Below, in pieces: positions 6-15,907 of a stretch of 64,000 nucleotides of DNA. Below the pieces are notes generated by a model. That model worked only from the letters and a program-made list of their open reading frames with translations. It did no database searches and was not told the DNA's origin. The translations under genes were made by a program, and so were the position numbers. The DNA is from a virus (lineage: Duplodnaviria > Heunggongvirae > Uroviricota > Caudoviricetes), in IMG/VR virus record IMGVR_UViG_3300022821_000011, positions 13,134 to 77,133 of that record, one strand, 5' to 3'. Within the stretch, counting starts at the first letter, position 1. Every line of letters starts with the position of its first letter.

Positions 6-82
6 TGGTGCCCCTGATGAGACTCGAACTCACAATCTTTTGCTTTTGAAACAAACGGGTCTGCCAGTTTCCCTACAAGGGC
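6..82 (-). tRNA. tRNA; anticodon loop TTCAAAA gives apparent anticodon CAA (Leu) but the variable arm is short (type I)
   Basis: Reverse complement folds as a cloverleaf. Acceptor GCCCTTG/CAGGGGC, T-arm GTGAG-TTCGAGT-CTCAT, anticodon stem TTTGT/GCAAA, 3' ACCA encoded. Confidence 0.6.
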
Positions 83-106
83 ATTAATTTAAGACCAAAA
101 CCAAAG

Positions 107-300
107 TTAATTCCAAACTTGATTCTTGACTTGAGTCATGACTTGATTCATGACTTGAATCTCGACTTGATTCAAGACTTGATTCAAGACTTGATTCCTT
201 ATTTGATTCCCGAGTTGACTTAAGACTTGATTCCAGACTTGATCACTGACTTGAGCCCAAACCTGAAACCTGACTTGATTTCTGACTTGATACTTTAAAT
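107..300. repeat. Array of about 16 degenerate 12-bp tandem repeats (GACTTGATTCNN)
   Basis: Direct reading shows a period-12 repeat. The minus strand encodes MKNLK-(xNQV)n, the 66-aa ORF 107..307. Confidence 0.8.
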
Positions 301-327
301 TTTTCATTTTATTTCATTTCTAAAAAA

Positions 328-402
328 TGGAGCGGGTGATGAGAGTCGAACTCACGACCATCTGATTGGCAACCAGAAGCTCTGCCACTGAGCTACACCC
401 GC
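328..402 (-). tRNA. tRNA-Gly (GCC)
   Basis: Acceptor GCGGGTG/CACCCGC plus CCA, D-arm TAGCTCAGTGGCAGAGC, anticodon loop TTGCCAA. Confidence 0.85.
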
Positions 403-785
403 ATTAAGCTATTAAATCTAGAAAAATAATAACCGGCCAAAATATAATAATATCTAAACTTACTACTACAGCTAAAGTCCAATCAAAAAAACTTCCTTTA
501 AAATCAATATATCCAGCTTTAATATCCTTATGTATAAATATAGCATGTTTACACCACACTATACAACCACACACCAAATAAATAATACCAGCTATCACCA
601 TTATTTTAAAACCTTTTTACCCTTAGCACTTAAGAAAAATCTATCACTTCCATCTATTATAAGTCGTTCTTTTTTTAACTTATCAATAAAATCGTTTGAC
701 ACAGTTGTTTCAACCATTCCATTCTGAATACGCTTTAACCAACGAATATGATCATCATTTAACATCGAGGTCCTCCTTTATTGAG

Positions 786-858
786 TGGTGGAGCTTGTCG
801 GAATCGAACCGACCACGCCAATCTTGCAAGGATCAACTGCTACCCATAGACAAGCCCC
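786..858 (-). tRNA. tRNA-Ala (UGC); G3:U70 pair present
   Basis: Anticodon loop CTTGCAA, T-arm GTCGG-TTCGATT-CCGAC, acceptor has a G3-T70 wobble. The D-arm is short. Confidence 0.7.
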
Positions 859-932
859 ATTAAACTCTCGGGGGAGATGATAGCTCTCCCCCTTCCTCAC
901 AAGACAGCTATCACACATCTTATGAGAGCAGA

Positions 933-1007
933 TGGTACTCGGTGAGAATTTTGAAATCCCGACCCTCTCGATGTAAGCGAGATGCTCTACCTCTGAGCTA
1001 ACCGAGC
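933..1007 (-). tRNA. tRNA-Val (UAC); unusual T-arm with a T53:T61 mismatch
   Basis: D-arm TAGCTCAGAGGTAGAGC, anticodon stem TCTCG/CGAGA, loop CTTACAT, CCA encoded. Confidence 0.75.
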
Positions 1008-1008
1008 G

Positions 1009-1533
1009 TTAATAAGTTGTTGACTTAACTGTTTTAATACAATCTGTCAAATAATATCCTATTTCTTTTGTTCCTTTAAGACCAACTTTAAGTTCTTCTT
1101 TCATTCCTGTAAACAATATCATTAATGAATTATTTTTAAATAGCTTATCAAAAGCTTTTGATAGACCTCTTAAAATTACAGCATTTTTCTTATAAACCTG
1201 AAAATCGGCATCAAGTTCTTCAAATCCATTTCCAAAAAATGATATTTTCAAATTTAATGTTTGACCAATTGCAGTTTTTGGCAAATTCCACCGGGGATTT
1301 AATACAGTAAGAGTCGTATATTGATCACCATTTCTTCGTGGAAAAATATTAAGATTAATACGGCTTCCGTCTTTCCAGGATGTGGAAATAACACATGACA
1401 TATCACTGCCTTTTTGGTGTCCAGTTATTCCCCAATCACCAGACGATGCACTATAAACTTTTTCGGCATTTGCTGCTGAAAAAGCTAACAAACACATAAC
1501 CGATGCTAATGCCAAACTCTTTAATTTATTCAT
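1009..1533 (-). CDS. Secreted hypothetical protein with an N-terminal signal peptide
   Basis: N-terminus MNKLKSLALASVMCLLAFSAANA is a signal peptide with an AxA cleavage site. Confidence 0.5.
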   Translation of the reverse strand: MNKLKSLALASVMCLLAFSAANAEKVYSASSGDWGITGHQKGSDMSCVISTSWKDGSRINLNIFPRRNGDQYTTLTVLNPRWNLPKTAIGQTLNLKISFFGNGFEELDADFQVYKKNAVILRGLSKAFDKLFKNNSLMILFTGMKEELKVGLKGTKEIGYYLTDCIKTVKSTTY

Positions 1534-1789
1534 GATTTAATATCCTTTATGTAATAGTGTACGCTCTATTTTTTCTAGCGCCTTCAATTTGATTAAGAAC
1601 AGATTCATCACACTTGCCATAGGTTTTTTGAACAACATATTTTATTGGGTCAGATTGTCTTGTTTCACCCAACATAACAGTAGCTCCTACAATAGCGCAG
1701 TGTTCTGGAATCCAAGAAATAGTATATTGATCTATTCCTCTAAGAAGACTACATTGAACATATTTATTATTTTCTTTCATAATAATCCT

Positions 1790-1818
1790 ATATTATATTA
1801 TTTCTGTGTTAATGTCAA
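1790..1818 (-). promoter_or_regulatory. Sigma70-like early promoter (TTGACA-17-TAATAT) upstream of ORF 1547..1780
   Basis: Plus-strand tgtcaa at 1813-1818, which is TTGACA on the minus strand. The -10 lies 17 nt downstream. Confidence 0.55.
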
Positions 1819-2516
1819 CTTTTATTTGCTAAAAACTTTTCATATGAAATTATTTCATTGCCCATCAGATTATCCATATCTAATTCAAACGTAGATAATT
1901 CATTTAAACATATAAATCTAGTATCTTCATGAAAATAATCAAAATCTACATGCCAATGACCAAAAATATGAATTTCTGGCTTGTGATGATAAAACATAGA
2001 ATTAAAAGCTTGTTGAGTTCTAGATGGAAAATCTAATTTATATCCACGATTTGCAGCCCATGCTAATTCATCTGATAAAAAATCAGGAGCTGTATGAGTG
2101 ATCATAACTCTTGGTTTTTCGTCAACAATTTTATCAATTAAAAGATCTAATTCTTTAATAGATAATTCTTCGTCTTCCCACCAATCATAACCTTCTGTTC
2201 TAAATGCTCGATCAATTGAAAGAGCGCCACCTATAAACATCATATCGTTTTCAATATGACCATCAGTTATACACTGAGAATGTCTAGAACACACAGATGG
2301 ATTATCATGATTTCCACGTATAAATCTATGATTTCCATTAACCATTATATCATATGGAGGATTAGGATGATAAAGATTTAAATTAAAAGCCTCTGCAATA
2401 TCTTCTCTTCTTTTAAATCCAACACCCATATCTCCCACTTGAATAGTATTAGAATATTGTTTAATTATATTTTTATAAGATCCAAATTTACCGTGAACGT
2501 CTCCAATAAGAATCAT
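1815..2516 (-). CDS. Calcineurin-like metallophosphoesterase
   Basis: Motifs GDVHG, GDMGVGF and GNHD. Confidence 0.7.
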   Translation of the reverse strand: MILIGDVHGKFGSYKNIIKQYSNTIQVGDMGVGFKRREDIAEAFNLNLYHPNPPYDIMVNGNHRFIRGNHDNPSVCSRHSQCITDGHIENDMMFIGGALSIDRAFRTEGYDWWEDEELSIKELDLLIDKIVDEKPRVMITHTAPDFLSDELAWAANRGYKLDFPSRTQQAFNSMFYHHKPEIHIFGHWHVDFDYFHEDTRFICLNELSTFELDMDNLMGNEIISYEKFLANKS

Positions 2517-3944
2517 TTATTTTTAAATCTTTCGTGTATTGCTGTTTGTTGTTCTATTGAAATAGAATTTTCAATATATTCCTGTATGTGATATGTATTT
2601 GTCGGGATTCTATAAATAGATGAAATTGACCTGTATGTTGACATGGAATTCAAATCACTGATTATATCATTTTGATAATTCATTAATCACCATATTCTTC
2701 TTTAATACATCCAATTATTCTATCAAAAGTTTCTTCGATAGCTTCTTCATCTACACCAAAATCATCTTCTAACATGTTCCAAATTTCTAGAAAATCATCT
2801 TCATGATCTTTCCAAAAATCATGTTTCTTATACCAATTTCTAAATGCTTTCATTATTTACTCACTTTAATTTTTTCATATGATATGAATATAAAAATTTT
2901 TGTTCTGCAGCCGATCCATTATCATTATTCCAATAATATAATTTAGTTTCTTTTGGAAGTTCATCAAACCATTTCCAAAAAGCTTTTATAAACTTATCGT
3001 CTTTATTTAGCTTTAAAAGAAAAGTGCTCATAATATCAAACAACCTCTTTGTTTTTATCGTTACACCATTTAATAGCAGATATCTGCTTATCGAAAACTC
3101 TTTTTCTAGTCCATAAGAAACATGAAAAACATGAGAAACTGATCCATAAAAAATTTTGCAAGGGACTCTACTATTAGCATATGAAACCAACTTCATATCA
3201 GCTCCAGACCCAACAGAAGTCCATTTTATTTCTTTATACATATGATTTTAAAATTGCTTCTACTGTTTTGTAATTTACATTTAAAATAGTTGATTGTGAA
3301 TATCTATTTTTAACAAAAGAATACGAATTACGAGAATCAAAAGTAATAACAATGTCCATCAGAATTACAAGAGAGTTTATTTTATTATTTTCTTGATCAA
3401 ATCGATTCTTATCAATTATTAAAACGTTGTCTAACCAGTTTCTCATCTTTCTTCTTCCCACTCACCAGCTGCTAAAAGCGCATTGCCAACTGGCCCCCAT
3501 TTTCTCGTATCACCGTCATATTTAAATAATAATTCATCTGATATTTCTCCTTCAATTAAACTATTATATTTTTTCATAGGCGCCAGACGGTGTGTTAGTC
3601 TCATAATATTTGTACCATCTTTTTTAAATTCAAAAGAATTTATGTAAGTTGATACCCACACATATTCTCTAAATTCATATGTTTCTGTGTTAATTAAACA
3701 CATATTTTTACGATCATATGGTGTTCCAATAACTATATCGTGAACATCTGTTATACTATTAAACACTCCAACAAATGAACGTTTTGGTGTATCTTGATCA
3801 AAGTCTGTGTACGTAAAAGCCATATACATAATAAAATACCTAATTAAAATAAAAAAATTCATTATTAATAAACGGTGTGCCACTCCGCGCGTCCAGAGGC
3901 CACTTTAAAGGAACATTAATTAGCGCGACGTCCTACCGAATTTT

Positions 3945-4020
3945 TGGTGCCCCCGGCTGGAATCGAACCAACGACCAAGCAGTTATGAGCTACCAGCTAC
4001 TACCACTGAGCTACAAGGGC
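3945..4020 (-). tRNA. tRNA-Met (CAU), or possibly Ile2/fMet
   Basis: Canonical numbering fits exactly. Anticodon stem GGTAG/CTGCT, loop CTCATAA, T-arm GTTGG-TTCGATT-CCAGC, CCA encoded. Confidence 0.8.
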
Positions 4021-4325
4021 TTTATTTCGATTTATTCGTTAGTTCCTTCAAGATAAGCCAAAAATTGATCTTTCCAGTCAAAATAATCATCAAATGACAT
4101 TGGAAACGAGGCATCTCCTCGAGATTTATTTTCTTCTATCCACATTTTTTCAAACGCGTCAACATTGTTTTGCAACTTAAGCATAAATTCTTTAAATTCC
4201 ATTATATTAATTCCTTCTCACTTTGATTTATTTGGTGGGCAGGGAAGCCGTGTAGTCACTTCCAGTCGGCAATCATTCCTCTCCGTTATACACTCGGAGC
4301 ATGCCCATAATATTTATCCTAAAAT

Positions 4326-4400
4326 TGGTGATCCGAGAGAATTTTGAAATCTCGTCACGCGGCTTAAAAGGCCGCTGCTCTGCCTCTGAGCTACCGGATC
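4326..4400 (-). tRNA. tRNA-Lys (UUU); T-arm with the same T53:T61 mismatch as tRNA-Val
   Basis: Acceptor GATCCGG/TCGGATC, anticodon stem GCGGC/GCCGC, loop CTTTTAA. Confidence 0.75.
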
Positions 4401-4810
4401 GTTGTTTTTATGTAATCTTTTTAAATTTTTCAAAAACAATAGTAGATGTTGCTTTTTCGCCTTCTCCATTTCGATATCTAGCTTTCCAAACATCTCCAGA
4501 CTCTTCACCCTGCCCATAAACTTCAATAAGAAGATGTGGAAAAGCTAATGATAAATCTAACAAATCTTTATCACAATCATACCATTTTGCTTCAGTAATT
4601 CTAAAATGTCCAGAACCATCAGCTATATTACAATGAAAACCATTTTCAAAAGTATATTGAATAGCCTTTTTTGCTTTAAATTCAAACCATTCGGCTTCAT
4701 CTTTGCCCTTAAGACCTGAAACACTAACTTCAAAATCGCTATAATAACCCACAATCAATTCCTTCCTAATTTAGAATATATAACATATCACATATTTATG
4801 GCAATGTCAA

Positions 4811-5335
4811 CTAATATTTTTTCTTATATTTCATAACATCATCTATATGAACTGGCATGTAATTAGTTTTTTCTACACATAAATTAATATGATTTAAAGA
4901 AAAACTTTCTTTTTCATGAATATGCCCATGCGCATTATATTCTACTTTTCTAAAAGAATCTGGCATGATTGGAACATGAGTAGCAAGAAAATTATGATCC
5001 TTGAACAATCTCCATACCACAATTTTACCAAATATATCATAAAGATTTTTATCTTTGCCATCATCATGGTTACCAAGAATTAATCTCTTTTTAAAAGGCA
5101 TGCTTTTTAACTGTTTAAGAGATGATTCTGATTTTTCTTTCGAAAAATATACATCACCAAGATGGTAAAGAGTATCACCAGCTTTTACATTATCTGTTAT
5201 ATTATCTAATATGCGCTGATTCATATGACTAAGAGAATCAAAACCAGGACGAATCAAATTATCATTTTCATCCACAAATTTCAAAATATTCTCGTGGCCA
5301 AAATGAGTATCTGATATAAACCATATATTTCTCAT
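4811..5335 (-). CDS. Calcineurin-like metallophosphoesterase, second paralogue
   Basis: Motifs ISDTHFGH, GDV and GNHD. Confidence 0.7.
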   Translation of the reverse strand: MRNIWFISDTHFGHENILKFVDENDNLIRPGFDSLSHMNQRILDNITDNVKAGDTLYHLGDVYFSKEKSESSLKQLKSMPFKKRLILGNHDDGKDKNLYDIFGKIVVWRLFKDHNFLATHVPIMPDSFRKVEYNAHGHIHEKESFSLNHINLCVEKTNYMPVHIDDVMKYKKKY

Positions 5336-5529
5336 TTAATCTCTCACATATAAACCATAAATTTCAACATTAAGATGCTCATCACCATCTTCTAAAATCT
5401 TCTGCTTTTCATTACTAGCATTCATATAATTTCTATGAATGCTAAAAATTCTCATGGGATTCAAGCGATAAACGACAAACATCATTTCTTTATCTGTATT
5501 TTCTATTAACATTATTCCTTAAAGCTTTC

Positions 5530-5815
5530 ATTTTAAGTAAATCTGGAATTGATTCTTGACTTGCCAACTGACTTGATCCCAGACTTGATCGCCGACTTGA
5601 TCATTGACTTGATTCCAGACTTGAACTCTTAAACTTTTCATATCAAAGCATTCCTGACTTGATTCCTGGCTTGAGTCCTGACTTGATTCCTGACTTGATT
5701 TTCGACTTGAGTCCAGACTTGAGTCACGACTTGATTCCAAACTTGATTTTCGACTTGATCGCTGACTTGATAATTGACTTGATAATTGGTTTGATCATTG
5801 ATTAGATTCTTTAAA
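5530..5815. repeat. Second array of 12-bp GACTTGATTCNN tandem repeats, paralogous to 107..300
   Basis: Same repeat unit. Minus-strand ORFs 5528..5740 and 5638..5823 encode MKNLKNL-(xxQV)n. Confidence 0.8.
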
Positions 5816-5900
5816 TTTTTCATACTAAATAATTACAAACTTGATTACCGACTTGAGTCCAAACTTGATCTCTAATGTTATTCTTTACACTTTTAATAAA

Positions 5901-5935
5901 TTACTCGATGATATAAAATATATAACATCGAGTAA
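5901..5935. promoter_or_regulatory. Perfect 10-bp inverted repeat (TTACTCGATG...CATCGAGTAA) overlapping the -10 of the promoter at 5917..5945
   Basis: Read directly; the spacer is 15 nt. Confidence 0.6.
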
Positions 5936-5945
5936 CTAATGTCAA
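5917..5945 (-). promoter_or_regulatory. Sigma70-like promoter TTGACA-17-TATATT, with a T4-late-like TATAAATA immediately upstream
   Basis: Plus-strand tgtcaa at 5940-5945 and tatttata at 5946-5953. Confidence 0.5.
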
Positions 5946-5954
5946 TATTTATAT

Positions 5955-6033
5955 TGGAGAGCCAGGTGGGGCTCGAACCCACGTAAGACAGAGATTAAGA
6001 GTCTCTCGCTACAACCGACTCAGCTACTGGCCC
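5955..6033 (-). tRNA. tRNA; probable anticodon CUU (Lys), with a 7-nt variable region
   Basis: Acceptor GGGCCAG/CTGGCTC, anticodon stem AGAGA/TCTCT, loop CTCTTAA, T-arm GTGGG-TTCGAGC-CCCAC, CCA encoded. Confidence 0.55.
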
Positions 6034-6038
6034 ATTTA

Positions 6039-6551
6039 TTATTTTCCGCTATTTCCATTACCGCCACCGCCATTACTAGACCCGCCGCCCTGGCCATTAT
6101 TCCCACCACCATTGCCGGTGCCTGGACCAGATCCGCCATTATTACCGCCGCCGTTGCCAGGATTACCAGCATTTCCATTACCATTACCAGGACCCGAGCC
6201 GCCGTTTCCATTTCCATTTCCGTTATCTGATCCAGATCCGCCGTTTCCATTTCCGTTATCTGATCCAGATCCGCTGTTTCCATTTCCGTTATCTGATCCA
6301 GATCCACCATGATCCGATCCACCGTTTCCGTTACCTGATCCACCGTTTCCGTTACCTGATCCGCCATGACCTGATCCACCATGACCATCACCATGACCTG
6401 ATCCACCATGACCTGATCCGCCATGACCCGATCCGCCATGACCTGATCCGCCATGACCTGATCCACCATGACCATCACCATGACCTGATCCACCATCTGA
6501 TCGAGAAGAAGAACCAAGGCCAATATTTCCGCCAACACCTTCACATCTCAA
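6039..6551 (-). CDS. Gly/His/Asn-rich low-complexity repeat protein (GGSGHGG repeats). It is in-frame with an upstream signal-peptide ORF (6561..6674) across a single TAG codon
   Basis: Translation from ATG 6674 gives MKNIIIMSAIILASSTSLAVASDYCDRLSTETGAFHIQ, then stop, then FELRCEGVGGNIG... in the same frame. Confidence 0.5.
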   Translation of the reverse strand: MRCEGVGGNIGLGSSSRSDGGSGHGDGHGGSGHGGSGHGGSGHGGSGHGGSGHGDGHGGSGHGGSGNGNGGSGNGNGGSDHGGSGSDNGNGNSGSGSDNGNGNGGSGSDNGNGNGNGGSGPGNGNGNAGNPGNGGGNNGGSGPGTGNGGGNNGQGGGSSNGGGGNGNSGK

Positions 6552-7521
6552 TTCAAACTATTGAATATGAAAAGCGCCTGTTTCAGTTGATAGCCTATCG
6601 CAATAATCACTAGCAACTGCTAAAGAAGTAGAAGAAGCCAAAATAATAGCTGACATTATAATAATATTTTTCATTTGTTTCACTTTCATTTGTTTAATTT
6701 TCACTTGTTTAATTTTAATTAATCGACGAAATCGCTAAGATTTGCTTTCCAATTATCAATCTTTCCATATTCATTAATATTCATAATAACATAATCGCCA
6801 TATCCAGGCCCACCTGGTGACATAGAACTAATAACATATGAATCATCCAATCTTTTAACTGGTACATTAATATCATCAAGAAGAGTATATACGCCAGCAT
6901 CACACACTTTATAATGTATCTTAGCTGTTTTTCCAGCTTCCCAATTTGTAATAATACCAGTTTCCAAATCGATGGTAGGTTCCCAGCAATCATTACGCCG
7001 ACATGGAATAAGAGAACCGTCTGTATCTTCTACTCCATTTACTTTACCATCCTCCCAATATCTAACTCCACACGAAGCTTTAAGATATTTCACATCTTTA
7101 ACTACGGTTTCTGTTATTTCAATTTTCATTATCTACAATCCATTCTATAAGTTGTTGTTTAGCTTCTTTGGTCATTGTAAAATTTAAAAATTCAGTTTGA
7201 GAATCTAATCGAATGTATAACTCACCATCATCTTCTTTTTCAATACTAAAGTCTGTAGAACTTCTAGGTCCATATACTATAAATTCTTTTTTACTTTTAA
7301 TAATATCCATATAATCTCATTTCATGTATTTTCGATGATCCACTTTTTAAGTTCTGAAAGTTCTCTTGGAGACAAATCAATAAGTTCTTCAGAACCTCCA
7401 ATATTAATTGTAACAAGTAAATTACCATCGTCACACATAAATAATTCTAAATCATCTCGAATATGCTTTTTAATAATAATTCTTTTGTTATTTTTAATAA
7501 TATCCATTTTATTCTCCAAAT

Positions 7522-7598
7522 TGGCACAGGCACCGGGGATTGAACCCGAAATATCAGCTCCACAAACTGAGGTGTTACCACATTACACTATACCTGCC
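7522..7598 (-). tRNA. tRNA-His (GUG), with an extra 5' G (-1) encoded
   Basis: D-arm GTGT-AATGTGGTA-ACAC, anticodon stem TCAGT/GCTGA, loop TTGTGGA, T-arm TCGGG-TTCAATC-CCCGG, CCA encoded. Confidence 0.7.
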
Positions 7599-7617
7599 TG
7601 ATTGTCAATCATTAATT

Positions 7618-7711
7618 TGGTACTCCCACCAGGATTCGAACCTGGGACGCTCTCTAATCTGGAGACGATGCTGAATATAAGTCAGGTGTTTTACCGCTAA
7701 ACTATGGGAGT
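7618..7711 (-). tRNA. Type II tRNA with a long variable arm; apparent anticodon UAU from loop CTTATAT, so identity is unclear (Leu, Tyr or Ser class)
   Basis: Acceptor ACTCCCA/TGGGAGT plus ACCA, T-arm CCAGG-TTCGAAT-CCTGG, 94 nt. Confidence 0.6.
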
Positions 7712-7716
7712 ATTGT

Positions 7717-7791: not shown

Positions 7792-7843
7792 GTTATTCTT
7801 TTTTTAACTTTCATCATAATAATTTTCCTTAGTATTAACTATT

Positions 7844-10099
7844 TCAGGATTTCAGGATTTCAGGAACCGATGTTTTATTTGATACAAATTCAAATCCAAG
7901 ATCATCATCTTTTATGACTACCTTAACTTTACCACCATTCATCAACTTGCCAAACAAAACTTCTTCTGCAAGTGGTTGCTTGATGTATTTCTGTATCACT
8001 CGAGCCAATGGACGCGCTCCCATTTGTTCATCATAACCTTTTTCAGCCAACCAATCTCTTGCTTTATCTGAAAGGTCAATAATAATCTCTCTTTCAGAAA
8101 GCTGATTTTCTAATTGATTAACAAATTTATCAACGATGGTACGAACAATTTCTGGCGTTAGATGTGAAAAGCTTACAATTGAATCCAAACGATTTCTAAA
8201 TTCAGGAGCAAAAAGCATATTGATAGCTTCTATATCATCACCTTCTCTTTTGTTTTGAGTAAAACCAAAGGCCGAGGCTGCTAGATTTTGAGCACCAGCA
8301 TTTGTAGTCATAATCAAAATCACATTACGGAAATTTACTGTTTTTCCATTGTTGTCTGTCAACTGACCATTATCCATCACCTGCAATAAAATATTAAAGA
8401 TGGCCGGATGGGCTTTCTCGATTTCGTCGAGAAGGAGAACGCAGTGAGGGTTTTGATCTACACTATCTGTAAGCAATCCACCCTGATCGAACCCAACATA
8501 TCCAGGAGGTGCTCCAATAAGACGGGATACACTATGCGACTCCATATATTCTGACATGTCAAATCTAATAAGATTTACATTAAGAGAATCAGATAGCTGC
8601 TTGGCCACTTCAGTTTTACCGACACCAGTCGGACCCGAGAACAAATAACAGCCAACTGGCTTTTCCATTTCTCTCAATCCAGCTCTAGAAGTCATAATTG
8701 AAGAAACCAAAGCATCAATTGCACTATTTTGACCGAAAACAGATCTTTTCATTTCGCCGGCCAAATCTTTTAGCAAACTACGATCATCTTGAGATATATT
8801 CTTAGAAGGTATTCTTGCAATTTTTGCAATAATATTTTCAATATCAACTACTTCAATTATCTTTTTTCTTTTATCTTCAGTGAACAGCATTTGCGCTGCA
8901 CCAGACTCATCAATCACATCAATTGCTTTATCTGGCAACTTACGATCATGAATATATCTTGAAGATAATTCTACAGCAGATTTTATAGCATCTTCAGTAT
9001 ATTCAACCTTATGAAAATTTTCATATCGAGATTTAAGACCATTCAAAATCTTAATAGCGTCTGCAATAGATGGTTCTTTAACATCTATTTTTTGAAAACG
9101 ACGAACAAGAGCTTTATCCTTCTCAAAATGCTGACGATATTCAGCATATGTGGTTGAACCAATACATCTCAATTCACCAGAAGCCAATGCTGGCTTTAAC
9201 AAATTAGAAGCATCCATTGCTCCGCCGCCAGTTGCGCCGGCTCCAATTAACATATGAATTTCATCAATAAACATAATAGCATTATCATGTTCTTTAATTT
9301 CATTTATAACCGCTTTAATTCTTTCTTCGAAATCTCCACGAAAACGAGCTCCGGCCATCATAGCGCCAAGATCAAGTGAAAAAATCGTACAATCAGAAAT
9401 CACTTCTGGAACTGCTTTGTCAACAATCAATTGGGCTATACCTTCAGCAATTGCTGTTTTACCAACACCAGGATCACCAACAAACAATGGATTGTTTTTC
9501 TTTCGACGGCAAAGAACCTGAATTGTGCGTTCGATTTCTTCTTCTCTACCAATAAGTGGATCAATTTTGCCATCAATAGCTTTTTTATTCAGATCAACAC
9601 AATATTTATCAAGAGCAGATTCGTCGTCGCCTCGCATCATTTCTTCATTACCAACATATTCCATTTCTTTATCTGATTTAGAAATTGCATTCACTATATT
9701 TTCTCGAGATATTCCAAATTCAGTCAAAAGAGTAACAGCATAACTATCTTTTTCTGCAAAGAGAGCAAGAAGAACATCTGAACCATTTACTTGTTCTCTG
9801 CCAGAAGATTGAACCATCACAACTGCTCTTTGAATTACTCGTTGAGCTGAGGCAGTAGGTTCAGGAACTTTTGCTGTATTTGAAGATGAATTATTTGAAG
9901 AGTCTTGAATATACTTATCTAAAGATACGCGTAATTCTCCTATACTTATTCCACATTTTACTATTACAGAAGAAGAACTCTTATTGTCTGTAAGAGCAAA
10001 AAGAAGATGTTCAAGTGTTATATATTCATGAGACATATTAGTTGCTAAAACAACTGCATCATGAAATGTCTTTTCTAAATTTTTAGCAAACGATGGCAT
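7844..10099 (-). CDS. clpA: ClpA-like double-ring AAA+ unfoldase/chaperone (Clp N-domain plus two AAA+ modules)
   Basis: N-domain [10 protein letters not shown]; Walker A GDPGVGKT (D1) and GPTGVGKT (D2); 751 aa with no long ClpB-type middle domain; SD AGGAG. Confidence 0.8.
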
Positions 10100-10128
10100 A
10101 TGTATTACTCCTAATGTTGATAAATTAG

Positions 10129-10157
10129 ATACTATTCTATTCTATCAGAAATGTCAA
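10129..10157 (-). promoter_or_regulatory. Sigma70-like promoter (TTGACA, weak -10) between tRNA-Arg and the clpA-like gene
   Basis: Plus-strand tgtcaa at 10152-10157. Confidence 0.4.
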
Positions 10158-10165
10158 CATAAAAA

Positions 10166-10242
10166 TGGAGCTTCTAGCAGGATTCGAACCCGCGACACTT
10201 AGTTTCGAAAACTAATGCTCTGTCCAGCTGAGCTATAGAAGC
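10166..10242 (-). tRNA. tRNA-Arg (UCG)
   Basis: Acceptor GCTTCTA/TAGAAGC, D-arm TAGCTCAGCTGGACAGAGC, anticodon stem TTAGT/ACTAA, loop TTTCGAA. Confidence 0.8.
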
Positions 10243-10253
10243 ATAATTATTTT

Positions 10254-10317
10254 GGAAGTCCTTGAAAGCCACAGTTTTACCCATTTGGAACTATTTATGC
10301 TTTCAAGGACTTCAATG
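10254..10317. repeat. Conserved hairpin element, copy 1 (15-bp stem GAAGTCCTTGAAAGC with a 29-nt loop), abutting the 3' end of tRNA-Ser
   Basis: Near-identical copies occur at 11453..11510, 14900..14963 and 20983..21046. Each lies immediately 3' of a minus-strand tRNA or tRNA-like gene. Confidence 0.8.
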
Positions 10318-10404
10318 CGGAAGATGCGGGATTCGAACCCACGAAACTATTTGAAGTTTGACAGTTTAGCAAACTGCTGATTTAAGCCACTCATCCAATC
10401 TTCC
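10318..10404 (-). tRNA. tRNA-Ser (GCU), type II; CCA not encoded
   Basis: Acceptor GGAAGAT/ATCTTCC, anticodon stem GCAGT/ACTGT, loop TTGCTAA, T-arm GTGGG-TTCGAAT-CCCGC. Confidence 0.75.
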
Positions 10405-11452
10405 AATTTATTTTTATTTATTAAGATCTAAGGTTGCTGGAAAACCCTGCACTTCAAATTTAGTTATTTTACCTTGTTCTCTAGATTTATCTGATATTTC
10501 ATCAAACCAGGCAAACAAAATATAGTCTATATTATTTGGATCAATTTCAATTTCAAGTATAACTCTCATAGTGTATCCTAACTATAATTAATATATAACT
10601 TTTGATAATATTTTAACACTCCATCATTTTGGCTTATTAAATTTTTTACCATTTCTGGCAGCATTCGTTCAACTTTTTCATATTCGGTTATTTCTACTCC
10701 ACGACTTAAGAATATTCCAAAAATTTCTTCAAATTCTTTAATTGCTCTTTCTTCTGGAGTATTGATTGTTTCTAAATTAGAATAATCATCAGAATTTATA
10801 TAATCGCCAGGCTTTGGATTGGCTCTAGTAACTAAAACAGCTTTAGTCATACCTTCTCCAGTAGCATAATAATCTGAAAGTAAAAAATATATTTTATCCA
10901 TGAACCAAAAACCTCACTGCTATTTCTATTTTACCAAATATTTCTTCATAATTTGTACGAATCAATGATGTACTTATTGTTCCAAACTTAAAGTTATACA
11001 CTTTCCTACGGACATCATATTCAACATTTCCAATAACTACACTAGTTGATTTCATTATAAATCCTCCTTAATGCTATGAGATATTAAATCAACAACATTA
11101 TAAGAAATATATAAAAAATTAAAAATTGATTCTTCTTTTGATTCGATACTAATGTTAGTTGTATAAGATAAACAATATATATCTATCTTATTAAAAATAT
11201 CTCTACTAAGTAAACGCATTAATCACTCCTGCATAAATGTGATCAGTAATGTCATAATTCACATATATTTTTCCAGTGTGTGTATTATGTATTTGCGAAT
11301 TAAAAGAAACTTTTAAAAGTATTTCAGATTCAAAATGATAGTAAATAATATCAGATGTGTTTTTCATATTAAAACCTCAATTCTCTTGATATCTTAAGAC
11401 AAATTTCTTGATAAAAATCACGACACTTTGTTATATCAATTTTATTCATTTA

Positions 11453-11510
11453 GGAAGTCCTTAGCTTATAAACCCGTCGACGGATATTTATAAAACTAAG
11501 GACTTCAATG
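11453..11510. repeat. Conserved hairpin element, copy 2 (stem GAAGTCCTTAG/CTAAGGACTTC)
   Basis: Same family as 10254..10317. Confidence 0.7.
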
Positions 11511-11585
11511 TGCCGGAACGCTTGGTTTCGAACCAAGTTTTCTTCCTTATGAGGAAAGCGAGATAACCAATACCTCCCCGCCGGC
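11511..11585 (-). tRNA. tRNA-like, anticodon CAU. The acceptor 3' strand carries a 2-nt insertion (CG-TT-CCGGC against 5' GCCGGCG); possibly a degenerate or specialised tRNA
   Basis: D-arm GAGG-TATTGGTTA-TCTC, anticodon stem CTTTC/GGAAG, loop CTCATAA, T-arm CTTGG-TTCGAAA-CCAAG. Confidence 0.45.
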
Positions 11586-11836
11586 TTAAAATTTTATAGT
11601 ATATTATTTGCTTTAATATAATTATAAAGTAAGCTATGACTGATAATATAACTATCATATACTTTTCGAAGTTCAAAAGGCGCTCTCATGTTATTTCCAT
11701 CAATCCAATTAAGAACTGTTCGCTCTTTTTTATTATAAATGGTTGTAGATAATTTCATCATTTTGATAATCCTATGTAAAAACAGCGATAATATTAATAT
11801 ATCATCGCTGCTCTAAATTGTCAATTATAAAATGTA

Positions 11837-13297
11837 TTAAACTGCAATATCGTATCGCTCATTCATAATTGTTTTAAGCATAATAGCTTCAGGTGTCATA
11901 TTCTCCATATCAGAGCTAAGCACTGACTTAACAATAGTTGGAGAGAAACCAGAAACCATAGCTATACCACGATCGTCAAATCTAACTGGCACATCTGATT
12001 TTGCATTAAGATTCCAGAATACAATACCCGGCATAATATATCCAGCCATTTCATACTTATGACGAATCATTTCTACAGCTGAATGATCTAGATTTGCACA
12101 TTGATCAAACTGCATATCTGACATGATCATAATAACATCTGGCATATCTTCTTGTGGTACACTATGAGCTACAGCAAGATTAAGAACTTTATCAAAAGCA
12201 GCATGAAGATTTGTATTCATTGCCCATTTTGAACGCTTCATTTGATCTACTTTCTGAAGAATATCACCTCTAAGAGTAAGCAATTCAGGAGAACCAGAGA
12301 AAGTAAGGAATGTGTCCTTATAAACTCCGGTATTCTTATCAGCCAAATACAGGCCAAGAGACACTGAAACATCAAGACAAGTAACAGATGATTTGCTAGT
12401 ATGCCCACCCGCTAGAGTCATCATTGATCCAGAAACATCTACCATTGGAAGAATCTTTGCATCTCCAACAAAATTTGGAAGAGCTTTCCACTGAGCAGCA
12501 ATATGACCCTTTTCAACATTTGTATATCTTTGGTCATTATATATACTAGCCAGACCCTTAAGAACATCATAAGGATATACTGCTCCAGCATTTACTTTAA
12601 CACTCTCATCACCAGAAGTTAGCTTCTCAACATATTCTTCAAAATTAACAGAGTGACGATTAAAAGCCTTCTTATATCTAGCTGAAGCAAGAGAAGGAAC
12701 TTTGCTATAATCAATAGCATCCCATTCATTTGCACACATAAGTGTTTCAACAACCTTTGTAAGTTCTACAAGACGCTTACGATAAAACTTTGGAGTCCAT
12801 CCAAAATACTTACGAAGACTAACTGCCTTAGGACCTTTTCGTGGCATCCACTTAGCGCAAAGACCATTTCCATCATCAAGAGCTTTCTTAATAAGATCAT
12901 AAGCATAAGCCTTAACTGGAATGCTTTCAAAATCTACAAGAAGATCATCCCAACGGCCAATTTCCGGAGTCTTATCAATAAGAGCTTTAGCCTGATCTTC
13001 TGGCAAAAACTTCAAAATGTCACGATATATCTGACGTTCACCGCTTCCTTCACGAGCATCTCGAACCCACTGAGCAATACGCAAAGCGTACTCAGGATTC
13101 TCCACATGAGCCGCTGTGAAATCCGGCTTGATATTCTTCCCACGAGAAGCTCCGATCTTGAAAAAAAGATCTACATTCTTATTTGCAGAAGTAACACGAG
13201 ACTTCATACCATTTTCGGTACGGGCTTCTTGTTCTTGAATTGAATCAATAAACTTATTCATTTTCATTTTCCTTTCATCTGGATAATTGACCACCAT
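11837..13297 (-). CDS. rsr: Ro60-like protein (TROVE-like N-terminal region plus a C-terminal vWA domain with MIDAS motif VDVSGSM). The likely true start is MKMNKF, near 13270
   Basis: MIDAS DxSxS in LPMVDVSGSMM; overall size and architecture match Ro60/Rsr; SD AAGGAAA upstream of the internal ATG. Confidence 0.55.
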   Translation of the reverse strand: MVVNYPDERKMKMNKFIDSIQEQEARTENGMKSRVTSANKNVDLFFKIGASRGKNIKPDFTAAHVENPEYALRIAQWVRDAREGSGERQIYRDILKFLPEDQAKALIDKTPEIGRWDDLLVDFESIPVKAYAYDLIKKALDDGNGLCAKWMPRKGPKAVSLRKYFGWTPKFYRKRLVELTKVVETLMCANEWDAIDYSKVPSLASARYKKAFNRHSVNFEEYVEKLTSGDESVKVNAGAVYPYDVLKGLASIYNDQRYTNVEKGHIAAQWKALPNFVGDAKILPMVDVSGSMMTLAGGHTSKSSVTCLDVSVSLGLYLADKNTGVYKDTFLTFSGSPELLTLRGDILQKVDQMKRSKWAMNTNLHAAFDKVLNLAVAHSVPQEDMPDVIMIMSDMQFDQCANLDHSAVEMIRHKYEMAGYIMPGIVFWNLNAKSDVPVRFDDRGIAMVSGFSPTIVKSVLSSDMENMTPEAIMLKTIMNERYDIAV

Positions 13298-13400
13298 TGG
13301 TCTTAATTACTCGCTAATGCGAATAATAGGAATCGAACCTATTATTATTTTTGCTGAATTTATCCTATTCTAAACATCAGGTTCAGTTTGCTTTTTTTGA
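13285..13400 (-). ncRNA. Circularly permuted tRNA-like module, candidate YrlA-type Y RNA number 2, in the 5' leader of the Ro60-like gene. Order is T-arm, acceptor stem closed by an ATTA loop, then D-arm
   Basis: Minus-strand order: T-arm ATAGG-TTCGATT-CCTAT, then TATTCGC, ATTA, GCGAGTA, then D-arm GACC-AATGGTG-GTC. There is no 5' acceptor partner in the normal position. Confidence 0.5.
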
Positions 13401-13589
13401 TTACAAGTCAAATGCTTTAAGCTTGCGGAAATGAACCTATTTTTATTTCAACAGATTAGTTATCTACTTCTTATTTAATGTGGAGAAATCGAAGACCACT
13501 GCCATGTTTTGATGGTTTGCTGCAACTAATCTAAATTCTAATTTTTATCTAACTACTACTAATTTTTACTTAAATATTCAACAGATTGA

Positions 13590-13710
13590 TATTTGCTACC
13601 TGCTCTACCAACTGAGCTACCTCTCCATAGAAAATGGTGGAGAGGGTTGGACTTGAACCAACGACCAGGGATTTTCAAGATCATGCTTTGATTGCTGTAA
13701 TCAATCTAAT
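13590..13710 (-). ncRNA. Circularly permuted tRNA-like module, candidate YrlA-type Y RNA number 1. Order is T-arm, acceptor 3' strand plus ACCA, an 8-nt loop, acceptor 5' strand, then D-arm
   Basis: Minus strand reads GTTGG-TTCAAGT-CCAAC CCTCTCC ACCA TTTTCTAT GGAGAGG TA GCTC-AGTTGGTA-GAGC. The flanks carry GATTGAT/ATCAATC complementarity. Confidence 0.5.
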
Positions 13711-13882
13711 TCTATTTACTCTATTTGTTTATACTGGATCATCTTGGTTTTTTTTTCAACAAAAAATAAATGATTGCGGAACTGATCCAAAACTCTATTG
13801 CGTTTGTATTCAACAGGATTAACTTTGCTTTTTTGAAATAAAAGTTTGTTTGATTGCTGTAATAATCCTAAATTATGTATAT

Positions 13883-13911
13883 ATTATATTCTATTCATAT
13901 ATTGATGTCAA
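13883..13911 (-). promoter_or_regulatory. Perfect consensus sigma70 promoter (TTGACA-17-TATAAT) directed at the Y-RNA-like modules and the Ro60-like gene
   Basis: Plus-strand tgtcaa at 13906-13911. The -10 on the minus strand is TATAAT, 17 nt downstream. Confidence 0.65.
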
Positions 13912-13928
13912 CAAGTATTTTTAATTTT

Positions 13929-14003
13929 TGGTGGAAATGGCTGGAATCGAACCAACAAATGCTCAATTATCAGTTGAGTGCCTGGCCACTTGGCTTCACT
14001 TCC
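13929..14003 (-). tRNA. tRNA-Ile (GAU)
   Basis: Acceptor GGAAGTG/CATTTCC plus ACCA, anticodon stem CTCAA/TTGAG, loop CTGATAA, T-arm GTTGG-TTCGATT-CCAGC. Confidence 0.75.
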
Positions 14004-14019
14004 TTAATAAGCAGGATGG

Positions 14020-14200
14020 TGAGAGAAACTACCAACTTCTCTCACCTCGACATCTTGCGGATGTTTAATATTACTTGCGGTAATATTCTAGGACGTCCAG
14101 ACGCCCTGAAGTTTTTTTTGTCGGATTACTTATAAATCCGAGGGAACATGCGTGCATAGCCCTAGTCCACGGCATAATTATTAACGACTAAATTATACAA
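14020..14200. ncRNA. GC-enriched structured non-coding segment upstream of tRNA-Ile. It includes a 10-bp hairpin GGTGAGAGAA...TTCTCTCACC (14023-14051) and the hairpin TCGGATT...AATCCGA. Possibly a small stable RNA
   Basis: No plausible ORF, local GC well above the genome background, several perfect stems. Confidence 0.35.
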
Positions 14201-14899
14201 AAACGGAATGTTAACGCTATCTCTGCGGGTTCTTTTACCAGCCAGCGGAATGTCGGTGGCCGGTTTTATCATAAAATTTACAATTAATAATTTGTTCTGG
14301 TATTCTTTTAAGAACATCTTTTTTCATTTCATCTTCTGCTTGAATTCTAGAATTAAAAATGCCAAGTCTTATTGTTTTTGTATTTTGTTTAAATATTTTT
14401 TGTATAAACGAAGTTTCTTCATGTTTAATAATAGCATCTAAATATATTTTGCCTTCTATAGATTCAGATATAATATATTCTTTAACTAACATTAGTTTCC
14501 CCAATCAAAATAATTTGTGGCAGTTGTATATGTGCCACCACTAGTGCATGATGTATCATATATTGGTTGGAAAACGCTAGCAGATGTATAAGTAGCGGTT
14601 GATGTTACATAAATTGTAGGACCATTTCTTTGATCCCATCGTATATCAGTTATCTCTCCATCTTTAACTACTCTACAATGTTCATGCCCACAAGACGGAC
14701 ATTCAAGAACATGATTTCCATTTAAAGCAACATCTACAATAAATTGAACCCAATTATCGCAGCCATGACAATGAATTTCTTGTCTATGCTCAGTCTTCTT
14801 TTTAGGAAAAATCTTAGGTTTCCATTTAGGTTTTCTTAATGCCATAATCACACTTATTTTCTAATTTGTTTATTTTGTCTATGCTATATAATTCACTTA

Positions 14900-14963
14900 G
14901 GAAGTTCTTGAAAGTCATAGTTTTACCCATCTGGAACTATTTGTACTTTCAAGAACTTCAATG
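14900..14963. repeat. Conserved hairpin element, copy 3
   Basis: GGAAGTTCTTGAAAGT...ACTTTCAAGAACTTCAATG. Both stem and loop are homologous to copy 1. Confidence 0.75.
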
Positions 14964-15042
14964 CGGGGAAGACGGGAATCGAACCCGCTTTGCTTTCGCG
15001 TCACAGCGACAGTGTGGTAGCTACCCATTTGCCATCATCCCC
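14964..15042 (-). tRNA. tRNA-like. Canonical T-arm and acceptor; possible anticodon GUC (Asp) from loop CTGTCGC, with an extended variable region that contains a GAAA tetraloop
   Basis: Acceptor GGGGATG/CTTCCCC with one mismatch, T-arm GCGGG-TTCGATT-CCCGT. The anticodon arm is ambiguous. Confidence 0.4.
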
Positions 15043-15284
15043 ATTTATCTTTCTAAAATCACATAATCACCAAAATACTTATCAAAAGTTTCAACAAGAT
15101 TTTCATAATCTCCTGAAGTCATTTCTTCACGAATTGTACCAAAATCTAAATTTAATTCTTTTGCATATTGTTTTGCATAACCAAGAAGAACATATGCATT
15201 ACCATCTGGACCAGTCAAATCAATTACTATTTCAGCAGTCCTTTGTTTTTTTCTAATCATAATGTGTTTCCTTATTATGATGTT

Positions 15285-15313
15285 ACTATATACTGTGTTC
15301 TATATGGTGTCAA
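15285..15313 (-). promoter_or_regulatory. Sigma70-like promoter TTGACA-17-TATAGT for ORF 15045..15260
   Basis: Plus-strand tgtcaa at 15308-15313; SD AAGGAAA precedes the ATG at 15260. Confidence 0.55.
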
Positions 15314-15831
15314 CATCTTTTAGCAAGTCTATGGCTCTTTTTTTCCAGTCATCTCTTTGCCATGCTATTTTTTCTTGACTCAATTCATGATAATCATTTG
15401 CAATGAATTCTACAAATCGTCTATATTGATCATATTTAGCAAACCAGGCATGAGTTGGATGAACTTCACCGGTTGATATAATATGATAACACGGAAAACA
15501 TAAATTACCTATAAATCTACCTTCATTTTCATGATTTGTACAGCCATATGTAATGCATTTTTTAATCATTTGGTGATCTCACTATGGTTGACTGTTTTTG
15601 AATTAAAAGTAAACCATCTGAAATATCAAAATTCTTACCTTTGACGACACAATACAACTCACCAGAAATCATATTTTCATATGGAACTGAATTAAGACTA
15701 GCGCACTTTCTCATATTCATATTACTGTCCGAAAAATTTACAAGCAACACAAATAAAGAAAATAATAAAATTGCTGCTAATACAAAAGAAAGAAATTTAG
15801 AGTCCATAATCATAACAAAATCCTTAATTGT

Positions 15832-15907
15832 TGGTGCTCATGGTGGGATTCGAACTCACACTGATTAGTTCCTAAAACTAATGCCTCTGCCGTTGGGCTA
15901 CACGAGC
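15832..15907 (-). tRNA. tRNA with anticodon UAG (reads CUA, Leu) but type I architecture with a short variable arm
   Basis: Acceptor GCTCGTG/CATGAGC plus ACCA, D-arm GCCC-AACGGCA-GAGG, anticodon stem ATTAGT/ACTAAT, loop TTTAGGA. Confidence 0.6.

Follow-up and report, generated by a model that had tools for sequence, protein, structure and literature searches.

Introduction

The isoleucine codon AUA is hard to decode: nearly all bacteria rely on the essential enzyme TilS to read it, and tRNAs with a plain UAU anticodon are poorly charged and misread AUG. A tilS-deletion suppressor of Bacillus subtilis reportedly reads AUA without lysidine by means of a type I tRNA-Ile(UAU). In Escherichia coli, isoleucyl-tRNA synthetase (IleRS) favours the lysidine-containing anticodon LAU over UAU by 360-fold in kcat/Km, via a Trp residue conserved in tilS-containing bacteria, and unmodified UAU misreads AUG on the ribosomes (PMC3575796). 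The same two problems are faced by the tRNA-Ile(UAU) of Mycoplasma mobile, which uses UAU to read AUA as isoleucine without lysidine (PMC3575796); in systems of this type the tRNA has four arms and the solution lies in the proteins, namely an IleRS with Arg at the wobble contact and an adapted ribosome. Here we describe a phage tRNA with the anticodon UAU and a fifth arm, for which the proposed solution would lie inside the tRNA, in an arm carrying GAU, and would suit a phage that depends on the IleRS of its host. It is encoded in a 64,000-nt stretch (G+C content 31.7%) of the viral record IMGVR_UViG_3300022821_000011, hereafter the window, together with two leucine tRNAs with short variable arms and two tRNAs with an unusual T-arm.

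Other described systems share features with this tRNA. The nematode nev-tRNA(UAU) also combines the anticodon UAU with a long variable region (Hamashima et al. 2012), and it is derived from tRNA-Leu, carries Leu identity elements and is charged with Leu (PMC3333845). The allo-tRNAs are irregular, have long variable arms, have UAU among their predominant anticodons and occur, like the present family, in Acidobacteria, Proteobacteria and phages; they have an 8/4 or 9/3 acceptor/T branch, a Sec-like D-arm of a long stem and a tetraloop, mostly G73 or U73 and a Ser-like identity, and their UAU species were judged to be mostly inactive in translation (Mukai et al. 2017). In addition, synthetases bind free-standing mimics of anticodon arms, such as the thrS operator (PMC9976931). 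In mRNA mimics of this kind, which include the E. coli thrS operator and the yeast AspRS mRNA, a copy of the arm is placed outside the anticodon position, as in the tRNA described here, and the synthetase domain reads it by identity rules. The mRNA mimics regulate the translation of the synthetase, whereas the extra hairpin of the phage family sits in a tRNA and is proposed to serve the aminoacylation of that same tRNA.

Structure and Conservation of the Five-Arm tRNA(UAU)

The analysis revealed that the tRNA(UAU) of the window, which a sequence-only reading had listed as a type II tRNA, belongs to a widespread family of five-arm tRNAs with a conserved mimic of the tRNA-Ile anticodon arm. ARAGORN returned the same anticodon loop (CTTATAT) and thus the anticodon UAU, while the type II label did not hold, as the extra element is an anticodon-arm look-alike that is separated from the T-stem by a 3′ spacer of 5–6 nt across most of the family. 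In genuine class II tRNAs (Leu and Ser), by contrast, the extra arm lies 1–2 nt from the T-stem. By minimum free energy, the window copy folds into a five-helix cloverleaf, with a D-arm of a 4-bp stem and a 7-nt loop and a variable region of 24 nt. Hairpin 1, the decoding anticodon arm, has a canonical loop of the form Y32-U33-UAU-R37, and hairpin 2, the additional arm, is followed by the spacer GCGUC, which in its length and xxGUC form matches the variable loop of ordinary type I tRNAs (Table 1).

Two scans in opposite directions were used to define the family, for which all counts are given among the matches listed and are therefore minimum numbers. In the first, IMG/VR was searched for CTTATAT followed by a T-arm 20–45 nt downstream with hairpin 2 left unconstrained, and 20 of the 22 unique long-arm UAU tRNAs carried a second hairpin, with the loops CAGAUUA, CAGAUAA, UAGAUAA and UAGAUGA. 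In the reciprocal scan, CAGATTA was required 8–16 nt ahead of a T-arm and the anticodon was left free; 90 of the 97 tRNAs called by ARAGORN were long-armed with the anticodon UAU, and the remaining seven were incidental, mostly with CAGATTA lying within the anticodon arm. Since the association was recovered in both directions, hairpin 2 and the UAU anticodon are mutually coupled. Altogether, a YAGAUNA hairpin was present in 102 of 104 unique long-arm UAU tRNAs. All 102 members have the anticodon UAU, and the stem pairs of hairpin 1 vary freely yet remain complementary. A 4-bp stem is usual for hairpin 2. Its distance from the T-stem is 5 nt in 71 members and 6 nt in 28, that between the hairpins ranges from 1 to 7 nt, and A73 is found in 101 of the 102. 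In one scaffold of the family, the D-stem is Sec-like, with 4 bp and a tetraloop, and the anticodon stem has 6 bp. The window copy shows each of the family features, that is UAU in hairpin 1, YAGAUNA in hairpin 2, a 5-nt spacer, a 7/5 branch and A73.

Covariation was examined in 46 distinct hairpins, taken as fixed 5+7+5 windows. The A, G, A, U and last A of the hairpin 2 loop are invariant, while the inner four stem pairs are 78–100% paired with 3–25 double-sided changes each. The stem covariation reached 0.641 compared with 0.157 in shuffles (none of 500 reached the observed value) and at most 0.167 in slid controls. We hold the five-arm architecture and the membership of the window copy in the family with high confidence.

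Pairing of the hairpin 2 loop with the T-loop (GAUU/AAUC) or with the anticodon loop was also considered, and was rejected because CAGAUUA stays unchanged beside varying partner loops and no covariation was seen; the T-loops found with unchanged CAGAUUA include UUCGAAU, UUCGAUU, UUCGAGU, UUCAAAU and UUCGACU. No anticodon-like extra loop was detected on a tRNA with any other anticodon among about 3,000 tRNAs, in which the occasional other long arms end in GNRA or UUCG tetraloops.

A separate observation concerns long-arm tRNAs with the anticodon CCA (Trp) and G73 in related contigs (L169 5801-5889, L272 492-580 and L187 307-394). Their variable arms carry GNRA tetraloops and are not anticodon-like; the L169 and L272 copies also have Ser/Tyr-like D-arms. 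Ordinary type I tRNA-Trp genes lie alongside, and the identity of the long-arm forms may be Trp or Ser.

Distribution of the Two-Hairpin tRNA(UAU)

The two-hairpin tRNA was found in five cultured phages, namely Lactobacillus phage LpeD, Sinorhizobium phage Phosso, Synechococcus phages S-SRM01 and S-SKS1, and Aeromonas phage 1233. Of these five records, only that of Phosso annotates it, as tRNA-Ile(tat), and the other four do not, so that the family matters for annotation; the cultured phage-host pairs that carry it also make its role directly testable. Among the UAU tRNAs of protein-anchored loci, six were of the two-hairpin form, three were type I and one had another long form.

A scan of one genome per prokaryotic species yielded at least 73 cellular copies confirmed by ARAGORN, mainly from Acidobacteriota and Rhodobacteraceae. 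Those of Acidobacteriota (Pyrinomonadaceae, Acidobacteriaceae and Terriglobales) often lie within arrays of 20–38 tRNA genes per 8 kb, and those of Rhodobacteraceae (Ruegeria, Roseovarius and Sulfitobacter) are mostly solitary. Comparison with Pfam and PHROGs of the open reading frames (ORFs) around the solitary copies of Ruegeria and Roseiterribacter yielded no more than a GNAT acetyltransferase and a single weak integrase match. Some two-hairpin copies in the dense Acidobacteriota arrays (L401, L411, L504 and others) have irregular acceptor stems (AGUGGAGGGGCC...). These arrays may be related to the "polycistrons of irregular tRNAs" of Mukai et al. 2017, and some of the cellular two-hairpin copies might also be non-translational.

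Literal matching in open-access full text found no description of a two-hairpin tRNA(UAU), and this large family is apparently undescribed. It corrects the textbook rule that long variable regions are confined to Leu, Ser and Tyr tRNAs in bacteria.

Resemblance of Hairpin 2 to the Anticodon Arm of tRNA-Ile(GAU)

When a family member was compared by BLAST with deposited phages, its hairpin 2, spacer, T-arm and acceptor strand aligned gap-free with the anticodon arm, variable loop, T-arm and acceptor strand of a 76-nt tRNA-Ile(GAU) of Felix O1-like phages (wV8). The aligned segment reads UCCC-CAGAUUA-GGGA-GCGUC in the family member and UCCC-CUGAUAA-GGGA-ACAUC in the tRNA-Ile(GAU), so that the loops are the same except at positions 33 and 37. 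As no gap was needed, hairpin 2 occupies the normal place of an anticodon arm relative to the T-arm.

The identity set reported for E. coli tRNA-Ile comprises the anticodon loop, A73, C4-G69, the 12:23 pair and C29-G41 (PMC9976931). The IleRS determinants G34, A35, U36 and A38 are kept in hairpin 2, whose A38 never varies, whereas position 38 of hairpin 1 does. A C-G pair at the position of 29:41, which is the third stem pair in the window copy, was observed in 95% of the second hairpins, with the neighbouring pairs freely variable, compared with 26% of the first hairpins, 40% of phage tRNA-Ile(GAU), 60% of type I phage tRNA-Ile(UAU) and 11% of non-Ile type I tRNAs. Position 33 of hairpin 2 is A, or C in S-SKS1, and never U, while position 37 is usually U; the lack of U33 and of a purine at 37 argues against ribosomal decoding by hairpin 2. 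The S-SKS1 loop, CCGAUUA, indicates that position 33 is free to change while GAU is kept.

Codon Meaning in the Window

AUA is a major codon of this phage, whose G+C content is 32%, and accounts for 34% of the Ile codons and 25.5 per 1000 codons overall. The meaning of the codons was assessed with 25 window proteins, which were compared by tblastn with the viral loci collected, and columns with at least 15 homologues and at least 60% consensus were retained. AUA stood opposite a conserved Ile in 27 of 41 columns (Leu in 8 and Val in 4), and the other Ile codons matched conserved Ile columns at similar frequencies, AUU in 67 of 89 and AUC in 9 of 14. UUG matched Leu in 28 of 32 columns, and CUA did so in 6 of 7. 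A smaller test with two proteins and 19 sites had been ambiguous for AUA (Leu 23%, Val 23% and Ile 22%) and was replaced by the 41-column test.

AUA, UUG and CUA thus keep their standard meanings in this genome, and the unusual tRNAs of the array are therefore not agents of codon reassignment. AUU and AUC are served by an ordinary tRNA-Ile(GAU) of this array and do not require the tRNA(UAU).

These results also separate the family from the described systems with similar anticodons. A nev-tRNA-like, Leu-charged tRNA was rejected because AUA falls at conserved Ile positions as given above and because the Leu-type D-arm, defined here as a 3-bp stem with a loop of at least 10 nt, is missing from the window copy and occurs in 1% of the family; the anticodon-like 7-nt loop and the 3′ spacer of 5–6 nt are further differences from nev-tRNA. 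An allo-tRNA(UAU) was rejected on account of the 7/5 branch, the nearly constant A73 and the normal D-arm of the window copy, a distinction drawn from the descriptions of allo-tRNAs rather than from their sequences. A tRNA-Ile2, in which CAU is converted with lysidine, was set aside because the anticodon of the window tRNA is UAU.

Proposed Role of Hairpin 2 and Alternative Explanations

The explanation that we consider best overall, and probable by a modest measure, is that the short-armed Leu tRNAs are genuine, that the tRNA(UAU) is a five-arm isoleucine tRNA that reads AUA through hairpin 1, and that the tRNA-Val and tRNA-Lys carry an elbow module. Confidence in the isoleucine identity of the tRNA(UAU) is good, and recruitment of IleRS by hairpin 2, as suggested by its conserved bases, is proposed with moderate confidence. 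Hairpin 1 would read AUA at the ribosome with its UAU anticodon, while hairpin 2 would offer IleRS the signal of GAU, A38 and C29-G41 that UAU otherwise lacks, leading to charging with Ile, and AUA would be decoded without the TilS or lysidine of the host. A phage with a decoder of AUA that is independent of TilS must work with the host IleRS, and an identity signal placed in the tRNA would suit this need. IleRS might reach hairpin 2 through flexible linkers, or hairpin 2 might replace hairpin 1 under the D-stem. A more specific form of this idea, which we put forward tentatively and with somewhat less than even confidence, is that identity is physically split from decoding, with IleRS reading the GAU arm and the ribosome the UAU arm, and with either hairpin able to stack under the D-stem in a five-way junction.

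If true, this would add a third way of solving the AUA problem, one based on a GAU identity arm within the tRNA rather than on enzymes. Phages of many bacterial lineages, and some bacteria, could decode AUA as Ile without TilS or lysidine while using an unmodified host synthetase, and the identity signal would be naturally uncoupled from the decoding anticodon, which is a design goal of genetic-code engineers.

Several points weigh against an IleRS-recruiting hairpin 2. Class I synthetases such as IleRS leave the variable-region side of the tRNA toward the solvent, so the reading of hairpin 2 would need an unusual geometry. The three type I UAU tRNAs among the ten in protein-anchored loci lack hairpin 2, which indicates that it is not universally required, and the sequences behind the family counts are not phylogenetically independent. 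By nearest-neighbour isotype with the anticodon loops masked, the tRNA body is weakly Ile-like, a result that was not relied on. The modified base t6A37 (N6-threonylcarbamoyladenosine) is a strong determinant for bacterial IleRS (PMC9976931), and hairpin 2, in which U is usual at the equivalent of position 37, cannot carry it where A37 is lacking, while U36-A37 is present in hairpin 1. In addition, Acidobacterial allo-tRNA(UAU) variants, which have a different architecture, were inactive or toxic in E. coli (Mukai et al. 2017).

Among the alternatives, the one that survives best, and that we nevertheless regard as unlikely, is that hairpin 2 serves as a handle for a factor other than IleRS, either an enzyme modifying U34 so that AUA and not AUG is read, or a host toxin directed at the tRNA-Ile anticodon arm (an anticodon nuclease or an Ile-tRNA acetyltransferase), against which the hairpin would act as a decoy or shield. 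The misreading of AUG by UAU is a second problem specific to this anticodon (PMC3575796), toxins acting on Ile-tRNA are reported to exist (PMC6125619), the sequence-specific conservation of the loop would suit any base-specific binder, and a hairpin without A at the equivalent of 37 lacks the t6A determinant. However, the conserved G34, A35, U36, A38 and C29-G41 are the published determinants of IleRS, a decoy would need no exclusive coupling to UAU, and no candidate enzyme was consistently adjacent to the gene. Moreover, the family occurs in phages of four bacterial lineages, so the partner would have to be nearly universal.

It is very unlikely that LeuRS, SerRS or TyrRS charges the tRNA(UAU) as a class II tRNA, so that a residue other than Ile is inserted at AUA, in a switch like that of nev-tRNA or allo-tRNA. 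A long variable region with A73 is indeed found in Leu and Tyr tRNAs, nematode nev-tRNA(UAU) is charged with Leu (PMC3333845), and AUA aligned equally with Leu, Val and Ile in the 19-site test. Over 41 columns, however, AUA matches Ile no less often than AUU and AUC, and at its frequency in this genome a non-Ile reading would be proteome-wide. The rarity of the Leu-type D-arm and the 3′ spacer, unlike that of genuine class II arms, speak against it as well, as do A73 and UAU, given that bacterial SerRS needs G73 and TyrRS reads GUA (PMC9976931).

Equally improbable is the reading in which hairpin 2 is the true decoding arm, with GAU for AUC and AUU, and hairpin 1 is an insertion, or the variant in which both arms decode. 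It draws on the canonical place of hairpin 2 and its alignment with the anticodon arm of tRNA-Ile(GAU). It is opposed by the constant absence of U33, the usual U at 37 and the stem of just 4 bp, as well as by the canonical form of hairpin 1, in which UAU was invariant even in the sample that had not been chosen for UAU, and by the ordinary tRNA-Ile(GAU) genes of the same arrays. Least probable of all is decay, with hairpin 2 left over without function from a duplicated anticodon arm and with the short-armed Leu and U53:U61 genes turning into pseudogenes. In its favour, phage tRNA arrays are mosaic with a fast turnover, and the Rfam threshold is missed by three other ARAGORN calls in the window. 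Against it, the loop is invariant with many compensatory stem changes in four phage-host lineages and two cellular groups, all five genes in question score 54.7–60.8 bits in Rfam, the short Leu tRNAs keep their identity elements, and U53:U61 is kept between diverged Lys(UUU) genes.

Leucine tRNAs with Short Variable Arms

The two tRNAs with the leucine anticodons CAA and UAG were noted in the sequence-only reading for their short variable arms, and ARAGORN gave identical coordinates and anticodons. The long variable arm of canonical type II tRNA-Leu, a stem-loop exceeding 10 nt, is missing from both, and both possess A14, A15:U48, G18G19, A20a and A73 together with a D-arm with a 3-bp stem. 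In E. coli, A73, A14, A15:U48, G18G19 and A20a were reported to be essential for LeuRS, while the long arm is dispensable (PMC9976931). By their identity elements, the short tRNAs of the window are thus predicted to be Leu tRNAs, though not type II in architecture. As all the LeuRS elements are kept, they should be charged with Leu after loss of the long arm, and they would read UUG, CUA and related Leu codons by wobble.

Short-arm forms are common in phages. The viral loci collected contained 208 unique tRNAs with Leu anticodons, 89 with short and 119 with long arms, and A73 is present in 88 of the 89. The Leu-type D-arm was found in 69% of the short-arm and 83% of the long-arm forms, compared with 0–18% of most other type I isotypes, tRNA-Cys being an exception with 49%. 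Short-arm Leu tRNAs also occur in the cultured phages wV8 (Felix O1-like), S-SRM01 and S-SKS1. Contigs with a near-identical tRNA(UAU) have long-arm Leu(CAA) and Leu(UAG) instead, so that the short and long forms are interchangeable within mosaic arrays.

Animal mitochondrial tRNA-Leu and minimalist E. coli constructs likewise have no long arm, and LeuRS charges them all the same by way of A73 and the tertiary elements of the D- and T-loops; those tRNAs are organellar or engineered, whereas the phage class is natural and common, serves in bacterial hosts and keeps the class II-type D-arm. No description of a phage type I tRNA-Leu was found by literal matching in open-access full text, and the class is therefore an unrecorded exception among tRNA-Leu.

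The U53:U61 Elbow Module

The tRNA-Val(UAC) and tRNA-Lys(UUU) of the window share a T-arm in which U53 lies opposite U61, as had been read from the letters by eye, and both the coordinates and the mismatch were verified. The T-arms, GGGAUUUCAAAAUUCUC in Val(UAC) and GAGAUUUCAAAAUUCUC in Lys(UUU), have the common form GRGAU-UUCAAAA-UUCUC, so that the canonical G53:C61 closure of the T-loop is absent from both genes. Among 1,809 unique viral tRNAs, 98.5% have G53:C61 and only five (0.3%) have U53:U61, all of them in one scaffold. These five, with Thr, Asn, Asp, Trp or Lys anticodons, all have GCUCAGAGGCAGAGC as their D-arm, and their T-arm, GAGAU-UUCGAAA (or AUCGUAA)-UUCUC, resembles that of the Val and Lys tRNAs of the window. 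The combination of an AGAGGYA D-loop with a U53:U61 T-arm, here called the elbow module, is thus rare and occurs on several isoacceptors in related contigs.

The closest relative of the window tRNA-Val(UAC), a Val(UAC) of contig L169 with 83% identity, has a canonical elbow, so the D-loop and T-arm have been exchanged together. In a related Lys(UUU) of contig L373, U53:U61 is kept despite a diverged acceptor stem. The elbow is a conserved, transplantable module rather than a product of decay.

Another T-loop variant was observed in tRNA-Asn(GUU) at 23767-23843 (minus strand), which has AUCGUUA instead of UUCRANY and was missed by Rfam. The same T-loop is present in 21 unique viral tRNAs of the loci collected and may be another recurrent variant of phage tRNAs.

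The tRNA Array and the Phage

ARAGORN detected 26 tRNA genes and one transfer-messenger RNA (tmRNA) in the window, all on the minus strand. Rfam, with a threshold of 29 bits for the tRNA model, supported 23 of the tRNAs, a permuted tmRNA of alpha-proteobacterial type and a group I intron, and three of the 26 tRNA calls fell below the threshold. The five unusual tRNAs obtained 58.1 bits for Leu(CAA), 54.7 for Leu(UAG), 60.8 for the tRNA(UAU), 55.1 for Val(UAC) and 55.1 for Lys(UUU). All three peculiarities, namely the short Leu arms, the long UAU form and the mismatched T-arms, stand in both ARAGORN and Rfam, and the automated predictors gave no other loops, no long Leu arms and no marginal scores. 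The sequence-only reading had left room for folding artefacts or for switched identities. The former are ruled out by ARAGORN, Rfam and the minimum-free-energy fold, and the latter are not supported by comparison with homologous proteins, in which AUA behaves as Ile and UUG and CUA as Leu. Since every one of these features recurs in unrelated contigs, none is a chance feature of one sequence. All of these tRNAs therefore appear to be working, selected phage genes, neither misfolds nor agents of codon reassignment. The coordinates are given in Table 1.

Table 1. Positions of the tRNA genes discussed and of the parts of the five-arm tRNA(UAU) in the window.
Feature	Position	Strand	Description
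tRNA-Leu(CAA)	6..82	-	77 nt; D-arm GGG-AAACUGGCAGA-CCC; 5-nt variable loop AGAUU (U48); A73; ARAGORN, Rfam
tRNA-Leu(UAG)	15832..15907	-	76 nt; D-arm GCC-CAACGGCAGA-GGC; G37; 4-5-nt variable loop UCAGU (U48); A73; ARAGORN, Rfam
Five-arm tRNA, anticodon UAU	7618..7711	-	94 nt; 7-bp acceptor stem, 5-bp T-stem, A73, encoded CCA; ARAGORN, Rfam
Hairpin 1, decoding anticodon arm of tRNA(UAU)	7670..7686	-	CCUGA-CUUAUAU-UCAGC; anticodon 7677-7679; C32, U33, A37
Hairpin 2 of tRNA(UAU), mimic of the tRNA-Ile(GAU) anticodon arm	7651..7665	-	UCUC-CAGAUUA-GAGA; loop 7655-7661; GAU 7657-7659
Spacer from hairpin 2 to T-stem in tRNA(UAU)	7646..7650	-	GCGUC, 5 nt
tRNA-Val(UAC)	933..1007	-	D-loop AGAGGUA; T-arm GGGAU-UUCAAAA-UUCUC 944-960; U53 at 956 opposite U61 at 948
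tRNA-Lys(UUU)	4326..4400	-	D-loop AGAGGCA; T-arm GAGAU-UUCAAAA-UUCUC 4337-4353; U53 at 4349 opposite U61 at 4341
tRNA-Ile(GAU), ordinary type I	13929..14003	-	ARAGORN; Rfam 56.6 bits

The gene for tRNA(UAU) lies between tRNA-Thr(UGU), 5 nt upstream, and tRNA-His, 20 nt downstream. When the Clp-like ATPase that adjoins it was used as an anchor for relatives, almost no tRNAs were found in the 40 loci scanned out of 80. Two other tRNA calls, Ala(UGC) at 786-858 (minus strand) with an aberrant D-arm and Met(CAU) at 11512-11583 (minus strand) with a mismatched acceptor stem, were made by ARAGORN only and lie below the Rfam threshold; pseudogenes or additional irregular tRNAs may be represented here. 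Three tRNAs of the window have the anticodon CAU, of which that at 21046-21120 has a C1xA72 mismatch as in initiator tRNAs, while that at 3945-4020 could be tRNA-Ile2. Genes for tRNA-Tyr and tRNA-Cys are absent from the window, as noted for 1-24171, yet the Tyr codon UAU is used at 45 per 1000. The array begins 5 nt from the left edge of the window and thus probably extends past it.

The products of the larger ORFs are a family-B DNA polymerase, a gp44-type clamp loader, a DnaB/gp41-type helicase, ThyX, NAMPT, an NMNAT-Nudix protein, a Clp-type ATPase, a C5 methyltransferase and a 5-hydroxymethyldeoxyuridine (5-hmdU) DNA kinase. The DNA polymerase shares no more than 48% identity with the enzymes of T4-like cyanophages and about 54% with those of the best IMG/VR contigs. 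In a megablast comparison of the first 16 kb with deposited phages no relative was found, the sole match being 75 bases over a tRNA-Gly gene. The window is thus part of a divergent T4-like phage carrying a large tRNA array.

The tmRNA gene (62145-62513, minus strand) is of the two-piece, permuted form and alpha-proteobacterial type, with the tag peptide ANDNFAPLALAA and Rfam scores of 94.5 bits for tmRNA_permuted and 88 bits for alpha_tmRNA; this type suggests an alphaproteobacterial host with a low G+C content. The group I catalytic intron (49229-49448, minus strand; Rfam 83.8 bits) lies between the ORFs 48368-49186 and 49925-50629 and probably splits a phage gene. In the middle of the tRNA array, a 486-aa DUF7788/DUF2828 protein is encoded at 11837-13297 (minus strand); relatives were found in at least 260 viral contigs, many of these loci also having tRNA arrays, and the protein may have a role related to tRNA or RNA. 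The sole large ORF on the plus strand, at 17365-18093, lies inside the minus-strand array and resembles a GIY-YIG endonuclease; it may be a homing endonuclease that adds to the mosaicism of the array. Finally, the C5 cytosine methyltransferase (50622-54016, minus strand) and a protein with the helical domain of 5-hmdU DNA kinase (32602-33360, minus strand), taken together with ThyX, suggest that the DNA of the phage is hypermodified.

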